From UHGV virus genome UHGV-1947574: a stretch of 16,239 nt of DNA; one strand, given 5' to 3'. Position 1 is the first letter of the stretch, and the number at the start of each line of letters is the position of its first letter. Both the position numbers and the translations under genes were made by a program. Below, piece by piece: positions 1 through 9,700 of this stretch. Origin of the DNA: a virus. Under the pieces are notes generated by a model, which saw only the letters and a list, made by a program, of their open reading frames with translations, did no database searches and was not told the DNA's origin.

Positions 1-907
1 CCAGCCTGCTGGCGGTGTGGCGGTGGGCCACGGAACCGGTACACCAACAGGCAATGCAGAGCCTTCCCCCAAACCAAGGTAATTGAGGACATCTTTTATA
101 CTGCCCTTAGCGATAATAGCGCGACCAATAGCTGTAAGGGTTGCCAGCGCTGCGCGGTCTGCTCCGGTAAAATAAGGCAACCGATCTGCTGCAGTGGCAA
201 GTCCTGCCAGAGCAGTGAGCGTGGCATCTGCCGGTTGTTTTCCGTTTGCCAGATCGTATGCAGCCTTGACCGCTTTCGGTGTGGCGGCCAGTATTTCAGA
301 CGTGCTGTTGATGGCACTGCTCAGTTGTACGGTGCCTTTTGCCGTCAGCGAGGCAGCAGGCACTCCCGTTATCTGACTCCACGGGTGAGTGTGGCTGGCG
401 GGNNNNNNNNNNNNNNNNNNNNNNNNNNNNNNNNNNNNNNNNNNNNNNNNNNNNNNNNNNGGCGGCCTCAGTTTCTGATTGACTGTCCGTGGCGCTGCTC
501 AGTTGTACGGTGCCTTTTGCCGTCAGCGAGGCAGCAGGCACTCCCGTTATCTGACTCCACGGGTGAGTGTGGCTGACGGGCGCCTTGCCGGCTGCAAGGT
601 CGTATGCAGCCTTGACGGCTTTTGGTGTGGCGGCCAGCGTTTCAGAGGTGCTGTTGGTGGCACTGCTCAGTTGGGTGAACCCCTTAGCTGTCAGTGTCGC
701 GTCCGGGTGGTTACGGGAACGTACGTGTTCAGCCAGTGACTGTGCGGCTTCCTCCGTTTTTTTCTTCAGCCATTTCGTCCTGTTTGCCAGTTGCCGGGGG
801 GCTCGATTTGATATCCCGTCTGCACCACCCAGAACCGGATCTGATGTCTCCAGTTGATAGATATTTTCTTCCCACTTTTCTGTTTCATTCAGGTTTCCCA
901 TAATCAA
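1..907 (-). CDS. Tail fiber protein (P2 gpH / Mu S-like), 3'-partial, interrupted by assembly gap
   Basis: N-terminus '...LGGADGISNRAPRQLANRTKWLK' is typical of P2 H/Mu S-type fibers. Repeated 'TAKGxVQLSSAxxSTSExLAATPKAVKAAYDLA' units (phage tail-fiber repeat type). Start is TTG at 907 or ATG at 901 (GGGAG 9 nt upstream). The listed ORF 296..907 stops at 296 only because the gap of arbitrary length breaks the frame. After the gap, the frame with codon starts at coordinates divisible by 3 is open from 396 to position 1 with no stop and encodes '...SHTHPWSQITGVPAASLTAKGTVQLSSAINSTSEILAATPKAVKAAYDLANGKQPADATLTALAGLATAADRLPYFTGADRAALATLTAIGRAII...'. Confidence 0.8.
64..89. promoter_or_regulatory. 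Candidate serine-invertase (Hin/Gin/Cin/Pin-type) crossover-like site inside tail fiber coding sequence
   Basis: 26-mer TTCCCCCAAACCAAGGTAATTGAGGA; the central AAACCAAGGT matches the centre of hixL as I recall it (TTCTTGAAAACCAAGGTTTTTGATAA), about 17/26 overall, and about 16/26 to gixL. It lies where the tail-fiber constant part would meet a variable C-terminal part. Comparison sequences are from memory. Confidence 0.35.
256..740. repeat. Tandem coding repeats within tail fiber gene (at least 3 units)
   Basis: 81-nt exact identity between 317..397 and 495..575; a more diverged copy around 601..700 shares the 'gtatgcagccttgac...ggtgtggcggccag...gctgttg.tggcactgctcagttg' core with 257..330. 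Confidence 0.8.
403..460. other. Assembly gap (58 N) inside tail fiber gene
   Basis: Run of N flanked on both sides by the same 81-nt sequence (317..397 and 495..575), i.e. the gap sits between near-identical tandem repeat units. Confidence 0.95.
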
Positions 908-2970: not shown

Positions 2971-3567
2971 TCAGTGGGAGTGGTGGCTGGAGTTTTCGCC
3001 ATCAGACAACATACTGCCCGTGGCATGGGCATTCCCTTTAATCTCGATATTGCCATGGATGGTCGCGGTAACACCTTCACCACCAGAACCCGCCATGCCT
3101 CCTTCGTAAATCAGTTTACCCCTGACACGCAGATCTCCGGTAAGTTCGGTTTCCGGTGCGTCAATCGTGGCTTTCTGTGTTTTCAATACCACATCAGCAC
3201 CACACTCAATGACAATATGCTCAATGCCGCCCCGGATGATCAGAGTGTGCGTCTTCCGGTTGTAGCTGTACTCTGCACCATCAGCAAACCGGGTTCCCCG
3301 GATATTTTTGTCACTGAACGGTGGTTTATCGACGTCTGAATACACCGCGCCCAGAATAACACCATCCTCGCCGTTGGCATCGAGCAGCACCTCAACCTGC
3401 TCCCCCACGTCAGGGAGCCAGTAATCTTTGTTATCCTGGATATTGCGCTGCAGCACGTTAAGCCAGTTTGTGCGCAGGTTATCGCATTCAGGCAGACGAA
3501 CGCGGGCCTGAACCCTGTCGGCATCAACGGCACTGACCGTACCGACCTGACGAGTGACACCAGTCAT
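2971..3567 (-). CDS. Baseplate assembly protein V-like central spike (P2 gpV / Mu gp45-like)
   Basis: 198 aa; ATG at 3567..3565 overlapping the D-like stop (ATGA); C-terminus ends GENSSHHSH; position after the D-like hub. Confidence 0.8.
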   Translation of the reverse strand: MTGVTRQVGTVSAVDADRVQARVRLPECDNLRTNWLNVLQRNIQDNKDYWLPDVGEQVEVLLDANGEDGVILGAVYSDVDKPPFSDKNIRGTRFADGAEYSYNRKTHTLIIRGGIEHIVIECGADVVLKTQKATIDAPETELTGDLRVRGKLIYEGGMAGSGGEGVTATIHGNIEIKGNAHATGSMLSDGENSSHHSH

Positions 3568-5802: not shown

Positions 5803-8753
5803 CAGCGGTACTCCTTACGTTGTTTCTGAGCCAGCAGACGCTCCAGCATTTTTTCCAGCTCATGCAGACTCATATTCAGGGCACCAGTCAGTCCTGCAGG
5901 CGCTGTGGTTTCCCTGCCATTGAGGAAAAACTGAGGATTAAAGCTGACCTGGATACCACCAGACGTTCCACCGCCGGTTGCAGCTGCACCACGGCCTGAA
6001 TATCCGGCAGCCATGATTTCAGGCGAGGGGATACGGGGAACATCCGGTGTCATCTCATTTGCCAGACGTTGCCCTGGTAAAATCGATGCCCGGGTGGAGA
6101 GCGGGATAGCGGGCATGGAAGACAAACTATTGATTACGGCTCCGATCGCATTTTTAGCAGACGACATAAACCCATTGATATCGGGCAACGGCATACTGAA
6201 GCGAACACCTGAAGTGTTATCCCGTATTTCTGGCCCCTGAATGCTCACGGGCATTTTGGGGAGCAGTTCACTGGCCATTCGCTGCCCGGCCAGAGCTGCA
6301 AGCGGAGTGGTCCGCTGCAGGCCAATGGCGGCCCCCTGCGCGATATTGTCACCAAAGCCCATAAACACGCGGCTCGGCGAATGAATGCCCAGCTTTTCGC
6401 TGAACCAGCCACTGATGCTGTCACCCATTCCGGTTACACTGGATTTGAGCGACTCCCATTTGTTTTTGATACCGTTAATCAGACCGTCGACAAGATGGCC
6501 ACCGAAGTCGGTGAACTTTGCCGGCAGATCAACACCAAGATATTTCAGCGCAGCTGCAAAGGCTTTATAGAGCAGACCTGCCGGCGACCAGTTAATCAGC
6601 AGCTTACCAGTTCCCGCGATACCGCCGTTAAAGGCTTCCTGAATGTCAGCCCAGCACTGTTTAAACCAGCTACTGATGCTGTCACCCATTCCGGTTACAC
6701 TGGATTTGAGCGACCCCCATTTGTTTTTGATACCGTTAATCAGACCGTCGATAAGATGGCCACCGAAGTCGGTGAACTTTGCCGGCAGAGCAACGCCGAA
6801 ATATTTCAGCGCAGCCGCAAAGGCTTTATAGAGCAGGCCTGCCGGCGACCAGTTAATCAGTAACTTACCAATTCCCACAATGCCGCCGTTAAAGGCTTCC
6901 TGAATGTCTGCCCAGCGCTGTTTAAACCAGCCACTGACTGCCCCCCAGTTGCGGTAGATAAGGTAAGCTGCTGCCGCGACAGCGGTGATAACGAGACCGA
7001 TGGGATTCATCATCAGCGCACGTCCAATCCAGAGAACAGCACGTCCGGCGAGCATAATTCCGCGAACCAGCCCCCCGGAGAGCACGCCACTCAGTGTTCT
7101 GGCTCCTCTGGCGACGGCGCTAAATCCGGTCACCAGCCAGCGGAGCTTACCGCCTTGCCCCAGTGCGAGCGACAGACGAAGCCAGTTGGCCCGAAGTAAA
7201 ACAGCATTTTTCCAGACACTTACAAAGGGGGAAATAAGGAGATTCAGCCCCAGTTTGAGACCAACAGTCGCTATCTTAATCGCAAGGAGCGCACTGATGA
7301 GCTTAAAAGCCCCACTGACAAATTGCGGGTGAGTCGCTACCCAGTGTTTTGCCCCCTGAATGAGTGGAAGCAGTTCCTGAGTCAAAGAAATAAAAGATGG
7401 AGCTAATTGATCGCCCAGCGTAATTGCCAGATCGCGACTGCTGACCATAAGTGTTTTAGTGGCTTCAAGGGGAGATTTCAGCCGCTGATCATAAGCACTG
7501 GCAAGCAAATCGTTATCCGCAGCCCTGAGAGCACCGGCACGGATCTCTCGATATCTGTCCATGTTGGCCAGCATCGGGCGGATAAATGCCATGACCTGCA
7601 TATCCGCGAACATATCGCCCAGACCAAAGTTTTTCGCCAGAGCCTGAAGTGCCTCATCTCTTGCCGTATCATTCTTTATTTTCATGGCTGATTTGAAGCC
7701 GGCCAGCGCTTCGGGGCTTTTGGCATTGAGGTAACGTTCTATAACACTCAACATCCCTTCAATCGGAGAGATCCCCGCAGCTTTATAACTCGCAATAGAT
7801 CCCTGCAAATCAATACCCAGATCAGCAAACTGTTTCTGAGTATCGCGGGCAAAAATTTTGGTAAGAAAGTTTTTAAAATTATTAGCTGCTTCGTCGGTGG
7901 AACCTGCACCGATTTTTGCTATCTGGAGACTGGCCCCGATTTCAGCAACAGCCTCTTTTCCACTGGCAATACCCGCCATCATTGGGGCCAGGGACTGCAT
8001 CCACTTGACCTGATCCGGGATTTCAAATGACCCCTGGTCACCGGCATAAGCCATAATATTCTGAACGGCACCAAAATCTCTGGCCGCACCTTTCAGGGAG
8101 TTTTGCCAGACTGCGGCCACTTTTGCCCAGTCCTGAGCAGACGTGCGTGTTGCCGTTGCCGCGCGGGCAATATCCGGCATCAGAAAACCGATATCTGACA
8201 CATTATCAATATTGTCGCTGATGAGTGAACCCACCGCCTCCTGCAGCTCATCCTGATACTGATTGTATTTAAGCGCCCAGCCTTTTATCTGTCCGGCAAG
8301 TGCATCCCGCGTTTTATTGTCATATTTTGCGGTGATCGACATATCAATCATTTTGTCCTGAAAAGACATGGACTGCTGAACGGCAGGGGAAACCGTATGA
8401 TAAACAGTCTGTGCCATGCCATACGCTTCAATCCCCTGACCATACAGCGCCATGCGGTTAGCTTTCAGCGCATCACTGGTAGCGGATGCCGCTGACAGAC
8501 GGCGCTGCTGGCGCTCAATTTGCTCCATGGTGCGGCTTACCCGCAGCAGCTCGCTGTTGAGATGCTGCATCCGGGAAGAACCCAGTTGACCATAACGTTC
8601 TGTTGCACGGGTTAAAGCGTTCTGACGTTCCTGCAGGCGGCGTGAGGTATCGCTCAGGGAATCAAGCGCACGGCGGGTACCGCTCATTGCAGAACGGAAT
8701 GTGCTGCCAATCATCCCGCCGATAACAACGCCGACTGAAAACTGTCCCGACAT
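5802..8753 (-). CDS. Tail tape measure protein
   Basis: 983 aa; ATG at 8753 with GGAGG 9 nt upstream; largest gene, immediately after the chaperone; hydrophobic segments plus long helical Ala/Gln/Arg-rich regions; contains an 87-aa tandem duplication. Confidence 0.9.
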   Translation of the reverse strand: MSGQFSVGVVIGGMIGSTFRSAMSGTRRALDSLSDTSRRLQERQNALTRATERYGQLGSSRMQHLNSELLRVSRTMEQIERQQRRLSAASATSDALKANRMALYGQGIEAYGMAQTVYHTVSPAVQQSMSFQDKMIDMSITAKYDNKTRDALAGQIKGWALKYNQYQDELQEAVGSLISDNIDNVSDIGFLMPDIARAATATRTSAQDWAKVAAVWQNSLKGAARDFGAVQNIMAYAGDQGSFEIPDQVKWMQSLAPMMAGIASGKEAVAEIGASLQIAKIGAGSTDEAANNFKNFLTKIFARDTQKQFADLGIDLQGSIASYKAAGISPIEGMLSVIERYLNAKSPEALAGFKSAMKIKNDTARDEALQALAKNFGLGDMFADMQVMAFIRPMLANMDRYREIRAGALRAADNDLLASAYDQRLKSPLEATKTLMVSSRDLAITLGDQLAPSFISLTQELLPLIQGAKHWVATHPQFVSGAFKLISALLAIKIATVGLKLGLNLLISPFVSVWKNAVLLRANWLRLSLALGQGGKLRWLVTGFSAVARGARTLSGVLSGGLVRGIMLAGRAVLWIGRALMMNPIGLVITAVAAAAYLIYRNWGAVSGWFKQRWADIQEAFNGGIVGIGKLLINWSPAGLLYKAFAAALKYFGVALPAKFTDFGGHLIDGLINGIKNKWGSLKSSVTGMGDSISSWFKQCWADIQEAFNGGIAGTGKLLINWSPAGLLYKAFAAALKYLGVDLPAKFTDFGGHLVDGLINGIKNKWESLKSSVTGMGDSISGWFSEKLGIHSPSRVFMGFGDNIAQGAAIGLQRTTPLAALAGQRMASELLPKMPVSIQGPEIRDNTSGVRFSMPLPDINGFMSSAKNAIGAVINSLSSMPAIPLSTRASILPGQRLANEMTPDVPRIPSPEIMAAGYSGRGAAATGGGTSGGIQVSFNPQFFLNGRETTAPAGLTGALNMSLHELEKMLERLLAQKQRKEYR
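6403..6924. repeat. In-frame tandem duplication inside tape measure gene (2 x 261 bp, about 93% identical)
   Basis: 'aaccagccactgatgctgtcaccc...' at 6403, recurring at 6664 and, truncated, at 6925; period 261 nt. Encodes 'WFKQ(R/C)WADIQEAFNGGI(V/A)G(I/T)GKLLINWSPAGLLYKAFAAALKY(F/L)GV(A/D)LPAKFTDFGGHL(I/V)DGLINGIKNKW(G/E)SLKSSVTGMGDSIS' twice. Confidence 0.95.
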
Positions 8754-8903
8754 AGTGGTTAACCTCCGGGGAAGGTGAAAAGACGTGAGGGAATAACGCA
8801 GAACAGCCGCTACTGGCGGGGGGCTGGAATTTTAGTTTTTTCCCGGCGGGACGAACCGTGGGGGGAAAAACCGCACCCCAGCCGCTACTGGCGGCTGTCT
8901 GTA

Positions 8904-9321
8904 CTATGATTTGTCGCCGTACTCGCTTTTTATTTGCTCTTCAGCCTGCTCCAGCCACATCTCCAGATCGTCAGTATCGAGGGCATCAATCTCCCCCGGC
9001 TGAAACCGGAACCATCTCGCCAGCAGCCCCTGCGCCTGCGTCAGCGCCCTGGTTGCTCTCACCCATCCCCGTGATGAGCTGAAATCGTTTCTGTAACTGC
9101 AGGTAATCAGCCAGATCCATATTGTCGAGATCTTCCGGGAGAAGACCAGTACTGCGGGCAATCAGCGGTTCGTCCCAGTCTGCCGGGTTTTTGCTGATTT
9201 TGCGCACCTGCTTCAGGTCTTTTACCGTCAGGCGTTTCAGTTCAACCAGCTCAATTCTGGTGCCTGCAGCAGTGGTGAAGGGATAAGACAATTTAAAAGT
9301 ATCGGATGGGGTCTGTGACAT
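8904..9321 (-). CDS. Putative frameshift-extended chaperone (E+E' / G-T-like fusion); shift geometry +1 (or -2)
   Basis: A second frame stays open across the 3' part of the chaperone gene and continues 82 nt past its stop to a TAG at 8906..8904, ending '...GEIDALDTDDLEMWLEQAEEQIKSEYGDKS'. It has no ATG of its own upstream of the overlap. Candidate shift site: the G5 run (minus strand) at 8993..8997, just before the chaperone stop. Confidence 0.5.
8986..9321 (-). CDS. Tail assembly chaperone (P2 gpE / lambda G-like)
   Basis: 111 aa; ATG at 9321 with AGGAG 7 nt upstream; sits directly upstream of the tape measure gene, the conserved chaperone position. Confidence 0.7.
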   Translation of the reverse strand: MSQTPSDTFKLSYPFTTAAGTRIELVELKRLTVKDLKQVRKISKNPADWDEPLIARSTGLLPEDLDNMDLADYLQLQKRFQLITGMGESNQGADAGAGAAGEMVPVSAGGD

Positions 9322-9377
9322 GATTGTGCTCCTGTGTAAGTTCAGGGCAGTATGTCGGGAGAAGCGCGTGACGGATA

Positions 9378-9412
9378 TTAAAGGAGATTAAGAAGAAGGG
9401 GCCGGAGCCCCT
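9378..9412 (-). terminator. Candidate rho-independent terminator/attenuator
   Basis: On the minus strand, hairpin AGGGGC-UCCG-GCCCCU (6-bp GC stem, 4-nt loop; plus coordinates 9397..9412) followed directly by UCUUCUUAAUCUCCUUU; located 7 nt after the 93-aa ORF stop. Confidence 0.5.
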
Positions 9413-9418
9413 GTGATG

Positions 9419-9700
9419 TCAGCAAGTGCGAAACCCCTTGCAGTTACGCAGGAAAGCGATGAGAAGCGTCTTTCCCTCAGATTTGCCGATGCCGGAGAAC
9501 CAGTGGTCGGGAGGCTCCCATGCTTCAATCAAATCCGCCAGTTTGCGGGCCTTTGAACGTGTGCAGTCAATCGGGTCATTGGTTTTACGGGTATTAAAAA
9601 GGGTTTCCACCCCCGGAATATCAAGGAGGGTAAACCACGTACCATTTGACATGCCCAGTGCCGCACATCGTCCTCCTTTATCCGTCAGTTCAACACTCAC
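9419..9700 (-). CDS. Hypothetical small protein between tail tube and chaperone
   Basis: 93-aa ORF with GTG start at 9700, 2 nt after the tube stop, GGGGG about 10 nt upstream; no family recognised; followed by a terminator-like hairpin. Coding status uncertain. Confidence 0.35.
   Translation of the reverse strand: MSVELTDKGGRCAALGMSNGTWFTLLDIPGVETLFNTRKTNDPIDCTRSKARKLADLIEAWEPPDHWFSGIGKSEGKTLLIAFLRNCKGFRTC

Follow-up and report, generated by a model that had tools for sequence, protein, structure and literature searches.

A Gin/Pin-type crossover site in the tail-fibre gene of a transposable Escherichia coli prophage, very probably bounding an invertible fibre segment

The stretch of DNA studied here, 16,239 nt of the virus genome UHGV-1947574 (hereafter the window), carries within its tail-fibre gene a 26-mer at positions 64-89 that is very probably a bona fide Gin/Pin-type crossover site, belonging to a tail-fibre segment that is inverted by a serine invertase. 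Sequence identity places the window in the late/tail region of a BcepMu/Mu-like transposable prophage that resides in Escherichia coli and that is known, in strain EC958, as Phi2. The switch is already known, having been published for the same prophage family, in EC958, in 2014 (Forde et al., 2014; PMC4134206). The fibre gene continues past window position 1, and everything described beyond that position is extrapolated from relatives at 99.5-99.9% identity. The genomes referred to below are those of isolate AF14 (record L001), SCU-172 (L007), AF3 (L008), two assemblies of strain 83972, namely NC_017631 and NZ_CP058220 (L003/L004), EC958 Phi2 (L009), and phage PhiKM (PQ738613; L002).

On the plus strand the site reads TTCCCCCAAACCAAGGTAATTGAGGA, and it resolves into two 12-bp half-sites around a 2-bp core, TTCCCCCAAACC-AA-GGTAATTGAGGA, which is the 26-bp arrangement of Gin/Hin/Pin/Cin-type systems; on the minus strand, which codes for all the genes of the window, it reads TCCTCAATTACC-TT-GGTTTGGGGGAA and encodes V-L-N-Y-L-G-L-G-E. 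The half-sites are imperfectly inverted, matching each other at 6 of 12 positions. A degenerate Gin/Pin-type pattern, TTCNCNNAAACCNNSGTWW, was searched on both strands allowing up to 1 mismatch, with 200 shuffles as the chance control; its sole match in the window is 64-89, against 0.01 expected. The 10-mer at the centre of the site, AAACCAAGGT, likewise occurs once in the window (0.04 expected by chance), and it is also found in e14 pix when the complementary strand is read. The original prediction, made from the letters alone, had placed a 26-mer with a Hin/Gin-type centre at this very position, within the 3' portion of that gene and at its constant/variable junction; the 26-mer is present exactly as described and unique in the window, and the gene structure agrees with the rest of that claim.

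The tail-fibre gene begins with an ATG at 901-899 on the minus strand, and its constant part (Sc), at 90-901 (-), consists of Phage_fiber_2 repeats and is broken by a scaffold gap. In the complete homologue of 611 codons, Pfam recognizes PF03406 (Phage_fiber_2) in 6 stretches (E 3.6e-108), and the site occupies codons 436-444, exactly where this repeat part meets a tip with a Collar domain. The central dinucleotide at 76-77 (AA on the plus strand, TT on the coding minus strand) provides bases 2-3 of the Leu440 codon, and it is here that the inverted repeat of the relatives starts, the core of their partner site being the same in inverted orientation.

Downstream of the site, AF14, SCU-172 and AF3 share one order: the rest of the fibre tip (Sv, 171 amino acids, aa), the tail-fibre assembly gene tfa, an inverted alternative fibre 3' end (Sv', 154 aa), the partner site and a recombinase gene. 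In AF14, the fibre gene (6008-7843, +; annotation and translation) contains an exact match to the 26-mer (7314-7339, +) and is followed by tfa (7843-8457, +; Caudo_TAP in Pfam), by Sv' (8464-8907, -; Collar domain in Pfam), by the partner site TTCCCCCAAACC-AA-CGTTTATCTCTC (8917-8942, +, inverted with respect to the 26-mer), and by the gene for a 190-aa recombinase (8997-9569, +; Resolvase and HTH_7), directly after which lies a truncated host gene (dgcQ, 9650). The second, inverted site with the same core is present in AF14, SCU-172, AF3 and both assemblies of strain 83972, reading GAGAGATAAACG-TT-GGTTTGGGGGAA on the opposite strand; it is located immediately upstream of the invertase gene, and the distance between the cores of the two sites is 1603 bp. 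Both tips have Collar domains beginning just past the site (Pfam), and both fusions at the constant/variable junction are in frame and intact, giving open reading frames (ORFs) of 611 and 594 aa.

The recombinase of the relatives has the architecture of a small serine recombinase, with an N-terminal catalytic domain (Resolvase, E 6e-51) and a C-terminal helix-turn-helix domain (HTH_7). It aligns with the Mu Gin structures 4M6F/3UJ3 over residues 1-181 (E 1e-92) at about 76% identity, counted from the alignment, displays the serine motif RVSTNDQ with Ser9 within it, and matches the Hin DNA-binding domain (E 1e-10). The proteins of EC958 Phi2 and strain 83972 are identical (WP_000904922.1). Thus, the alternative fibre C-terminus, the tfa gene and the Gin/Pin-family invertase that had been predicted to lie past position 1 were all found in the relatives, as was, on searching, the inverted second copy of the site.

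Direct evidence of inversion comes from pairs of near-identical prophages in opposite orientations. In the two assemblies of strain 83972, which are complete and independent of each other, the prophage resides in rstB beside tus with identical flanks, and the 1603 bp between the site cores of one assembly are the exact reverse complement of those of the other; further, a single-nucleotide polymorphism that lies within the repeat, 46 nt from its start, changes place together with the segment, and the exchange must consequently have taken place inside a 46-nt interval that includes the core. Similarly, two of the prophages most closely related to the window, SCU-172, in which Sv' is fused to the shaft, and AF3, in which Sv is fused, both carry the prophage in dgcQ with identical flanks, and their segments are inverted with 1 mismatch in 1603 nt. 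Both isomers, with their breakpoints at the sites, are therefore found among the relatives. At the scale of the species, a query for the Sc-Sv' junction, built in silico, was matched full-length by 167 complete E. coli genomes out of 5,426, as against 327 for the Sc-Sv junction; with queries of this design, a threshold of 80% coverage separates the two. Isolated single positions aside, the shaft-side arm of the repeat is of the type of the joined tip in 10 of 11 loci, which fits an exchange located at the repeat's outer end. Of 14 IMG/VR contigs containing the exact 26-mer, most display inverted tips, one tfa and partner sites, together with the invertase where the contig extends far enough. 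All these comparisons support the interpretation of the locus as an invertible fibre segment.

These same pairs bear on the proposal that the 26-mer is merely a conserved LGLGE-coding sequence of tail fibres with no role in recombination. The fibre proteins of Mu and e14 do share an LGLGE-type motif with the present one, and non-invertible fibre genes reportedly retain similar sequence, as is said of the work of Sandmeier in 1994 and of that on the P2 H gene. Against this, an identical 26-mer and its partner bound the inverted segment exactly in every complete relative examined (AF14, SCU-172, AF3 and the two assemblies of strain 83972), and the strain 83972 and SCU-172/AF3 pairs contradict the proposal, to which we give next to no credence.

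The inverted-repeat arms, headed by the two sites, are 229 nt long and 90% complementary in AF14, and they are perfect for 79-80 nt counted from the central dinucleotide in AF14, SCU-172 and AF3. Arms of such length would also permit a real inversion driven mainly by RecA-dependent homologous recombination between them, and in L017, one of the IMG/VR contigs, an arm changes type about 100-160 nt from the core. We consider this route very improbable, given that the exchange in strain 83972 falls within the first 46 nt, beside the core, that 10 of the 11 loci carry the shaft-side arm of the joined tip's type as noted above, and that the repeat starts exactly at the core of a gix/pix-homologous site with a Gin homologue adjacent. 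Moreover, at a similar locus, that of EC958 Phi1, about half of the reads are in the alternative orientation, a frequency typical of an invertase (PMC4134206), and L017, a short contig of metagenomic origin whose end also falls in the partner arm, is likely an assembly chimera.

Several points nonetheless weigh against an active Gin/Pin-type switch in this particular genome. The window itself holds one site, and neither a partner, an alternative tip nor an invertase; the evidence of inversion consists of the assemblies of relatives and of published isomers, the sample behind the window being represented by its contig alone. The outer half-site TCCTCAATTACC fits the outer halves of Mu and e14 less well, with TT in place of AA beside ACC. 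The arm of L017, chimeric from Sv to Sv' type, points to some homologous exchange or to assembly chimerism within the repeat. Lastly, there is a single tfa, unlike in Mu and e14, and Sv' is unproven as a working fibre, a matter to which we return below.

The first of these points would suit a relic, that is, a site whose invertase or partner has been lost or inactivated here, with the orientation fixed and the contig end due to the 79-nt repeat or to coverage alone. The region past position 1 lies outside the window, a truncated invertase occurs in the related prophage EC958 Phi4 (PMC4134206), and a perfect inverted repeat of 79 nt can by itself break a short-read assembly. In contrast, the closest relatives, at 99.9% identity over 15.7 kb, all possess an intact 190-aa recombinase and a partner site and are found in both orientations, and the invertases of other prophages can act in trans (PMC4134206; PMC12529663); a relic is thus quite improbable, and a Gin/Pin-type crossover site belonging to a functional inversion system remains by far the preferred reading.

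The window contains part of one repeat arm, at 1-77 (-), which encodes the first 25 residues past the crossover, GLGEGSALPVGVPVPWPTATPPAGW, common to both tips; Sv and Sv' have their first 26 residues in common, as the inverted repeat codes for these. Past the core the window extends for 76 nt, and the arms of its nearest relatives are identical for 79 nt; it ends 3 nt before the first difference between the arms, and its own orientation is therefore unreadable. Among the 14 IMG/VR contigs, 5 end in the repeat arms or at their edge: L016 at the partner core, L022 1 nt beyond a partner site, L019 78 nt past the site, and L017 and L021 about 100-120 nt from the partner core. The repeat is, accordingly, a recurrent assembly breakpoint. 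The earlier suggestion that inversion isomers caused the contig to break here fits with an end inside a 79-nt perfect repeat and with the like behaviour of the 5 contigs, and this pattern supports, as far as sequence can tell, a break due to the repeat or its isomers; a genome in a single state would also break at such a repeat, given a short assembler k-mer. The suggestion does not extend to the run of N within the fibre gene, which has a separate cause.

That gap, 58 N at 403-460, was considered as a possible product of inversion and rejected, as it falls inside a tandem repeat of the fibre gene. The repeat, with a unit of 168 nt (56 aa; Phage_fiber_2), belongs to the shaft and spans the gap together with 296-402 and 461-640; SCU-172 has 5.5 copies. 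By simple arithmetic, about 550 nt are probably missing at 403-460, provided that the copy number equals that of the relatives.

The closest published counterpart is EC958 Phi2. In the PacBio assembly of EC958, three prophages (Phi1, Phi2 and Phi4) were represented by alternative contigs where their fibre genes lie; for Phi2, a 227-bp imperfect repeat headed by the sites was described around a 2067-bp invertible segment, with the 5' site TCCTCAATTACCTT|GGTTTAGGAGAA and the 3' site GAGAGATAAACGTT|GGTTTGGGGGAA, and both orientations were present in the PacBio contigs (Forde et al., 2014; PMC4134206). We confirmed the coordinates of the sites in the EC958 record, where the crossover sites lie at 2541-2566, 2980-3005 and 4583-4608 of L009. 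Over 5 kb of tail genes the window shares 99.1% identity with Phi2, and several Phi2 proteins recur unchanged in the relatives; the fibre is likewise built of a Phage_fiber_2 shaft and a Collar tip. As to the sites, the 3' site agrees throughout and the 5' site in its outer half, the inner half of the latter in Phi2, GGTTTAGGAGAA, differing at 2 positions. The window 26-mer takes its outer half from the 5' site of Phi2 and its inner half from the 3' site, which is exactly the hybrid that inversion in Phi2 would create. Phi2 also differs in having three sites and three tips, whereas the closest relatives of the window have two sites, two tips and a segment of 1603 bp.

Versions of the locus with three or more sites and 3-4 tip cassettes, some in tandem, were observed in EC958 Phi2 and in the IMG/VR contigs L012, L018, L020 and L024, an arrangement that resembles the multiple inversion of shufflons; taken together, the IMG/VR contigs with the 26-mer comprise 2-, 3- and 4-cassette versions with diverse tips. 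The EC958 and IMG/VR relatives with 3-4 tip cassettes, in which a site precedes each cassette and several fusions are possible, are comparable to shufflon-like arrays and to Min of plasmid p15B (Sandmeier 1994, as cited in PMC4134206); unlike in those systems, the nearest relatives of the window have only two sites.

Among the classical systems, the G segment of Mu with its invertase Gin resembles the present element in belonging to a transposable phage, in the position of the site at the Sc/Sv junction and in an invertase that is about 76% identical. The Mu gix site is TTATCCAAAACC-TC-GGTTTACAGGAA. Mu differs in a segment of about 3 kb with the pairs S-U and S'-U', bounded by 34-bp inverted repeats with a TC/GA core, whereas in the element of the window the segment is 1.6 kb long, contains one tfa and has arms of 229 nt around which the core is TT/AA. 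In the P segment of e14, inverted by Pin, the pix sites are CTCTCGAAAACC-TT-GGTTTGGGAGAA on the fibre side and TTCTCCCAAACC-AA-CGTTTATGAAAA on the invertase side, and they are very similar to those described here; the inner half TTCTCCCAAACC is comparable to TTCCCCCAAACC, the invertase-side sites of both elements start with AACGTTTAT, and LGLGE is encoded in the same frame. Differences from e14 include its being a defective lambdoid element with an assembly gene for each tip (tfaP and tfaE), as opposed to the single tfa here, and its outer fibre-side half-site, CTCTCGAAAACC as compared with TCCTCAATTACC. In all three elements the fibre-side site is read in one frame, encoding IQNLGLQE in Mu, ENLGLGE in e14 and NYLGLGE in the window, with the common motif N-(Y)-LGL-(G/Q)-E. 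Hin of Salmonella belongs to the same invertase family and its hix site, with AAACCAAGGT at its centre, shares the 26-bp design; unlike the fibre switches, Hin flips a promoter and exchanges no coding 3' end.

The spacing around the invertase gene is also conserved, with 67.5 nt between the core and the invertase ATG in this prophage, Mu and e14 (L001 8997-9090, L005 4593-4690, L006 4686-4780). The enhancer of Gin and Hin lies at the start of the invertase ORF, within 90 nt, and the corresponding 90 nt here are 78-79% identical to those of gin and pin. All three genes have in common two 15-mers of the form G-N13-C, at ORF positions 22-36 and 71-85, which constitute candidate, although non-diagnostic, Fis sites.

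By analogy with the Gin/Hin family, the invertase would bind both sites in a synapse assisted by Fis and the enhancer, and would introduce staggered cuts at the central TT/AA dinucleotide; the half-sites would then rotate with the subunits and be religated, leaving the segment inverted. The fusions themselves are seen in the relatives, where a constant shaft of 440 residues is joined in frame either to Sv (171 aa, followed by tfa) or to Sv' (154 aa). Prophages, and the virions that they release when induced, would be expected to form mixed populations in which two receptor-binding tips occur, and the receptor specificity may be altered between the orientations.

The two states are not equivalent in their gene arrangement. 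The segment has one Caudo_TAP gene, downstream of Sv, rather than an assembly gene for each tip, and the stop codon of Sv' lies 6 nt from that of tfa on the opposite strand; in the state with Sv' ON, represented by the 167 complete genomes mentioned above, tfa is antisense to the late operon. The IMG/VR variants with 3-4 tips likewise have a single tfa. A separate assembly gene for each tip is typical of Mu and e14 and does not define the recombination system. A sigma-70 promoter scan of the invertible region of AF14 yielded no candidate for tfa in the Sv'-ON state, the scan being crude and Mu-type late promoters falling outside it. PDB sequence searches with both tips matched only the shared collar region, in fibres of the T4 gp37/gp12 type, and are silent on whether Sv' needs the chaperone. 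One may speculate that the switch is not a symmetric host-range toggle, and that Sv', found in about a third of the genomes with the element and uncoupled from the chaperone, represents a chaperone-independent tip, a fibre-OFF state, or a chimeric fragment with a host-side function such as blocking the adsorption of other phages; the PinQ/e14 StfE2 result offers an analogy for the latter (PMC12529663). We regard this proposal as unlikely on present analysis.

With regard to the prophage as a whole, the window is 98.6% identical to phage PhiKM, whose record is classed as Bcepmuvirus, and prophages of complete E. coli chromosomes match it, over 15.7 kb, at identities of up to 99.9%; at least 80% of the window is covered in 275 E. 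coli genomes, and AF14 is 99.8% identical to window positions 1-402. The prophage is inserted in dgcQ in AF14, SCU-172 and AF3, in rstB in strain 83972, and beside aroA in EC958. The host genes cut by near-identical prophages thus differ among strains, a truncated host gene lying directly after the invertase gene, and this is the spread expected of a Mu-like transposable phage. The tail module is BcepMu/P2-like and not Mu-like, and its type relatives BcepMu and KS10 are reported to lack an invertible region (PMC2628397), which makes the E. coli element a mosaic in this respect. Literature searches for this switch under "Mu-like prophage" or "BcepMu" returned only statements that BcepMu and KS10 have no G region, the description being found in the EC958 genome paper. 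An exact scan for the 26-mer in contigs, with one genome per species, gave no match and is uninformative as to whether the site occurs in other species than E. coli; the window was also scanned against Rfam and for tRNA genes, with no match.

PhiKM was discarded as a guide to the region past the site, since its match ends at window position 247 and early genes follow its fibre gene, probably through a mis-join. In this "partial genome" record (L002 9100-10357) the fibre gene has only 960 nt, the early genes that come directly after it lie on the opposite strand, and an antisense ORF over the fibre end is labelled "Fe2+ ABC transporter permease protein 2", likely both a mis-join and a mis-annotation in the same repeat-rich region. 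In AF14, the baseplate J gene (L001 4332-5434) is annotated as a frameshifted pseudogene; this copy of the prophage may be defective, while its invertible segment is intact.

Fibre switching of the Gin/Pin type has been known since about 1980, and our findings add nothing new in kind to its biology, the mechanism being a textbook one. What the site would explain is why the contig stops inside a fibre gene, and also the annotation, at the end of this common E. coli prophage, of 3' fragments of fibre genes alongside a stray "phage tail protein" and a "recombinase family protein". The fibre tip seen in any one assembly would be one of two or more interchangeable states, and not a fixed genotype.

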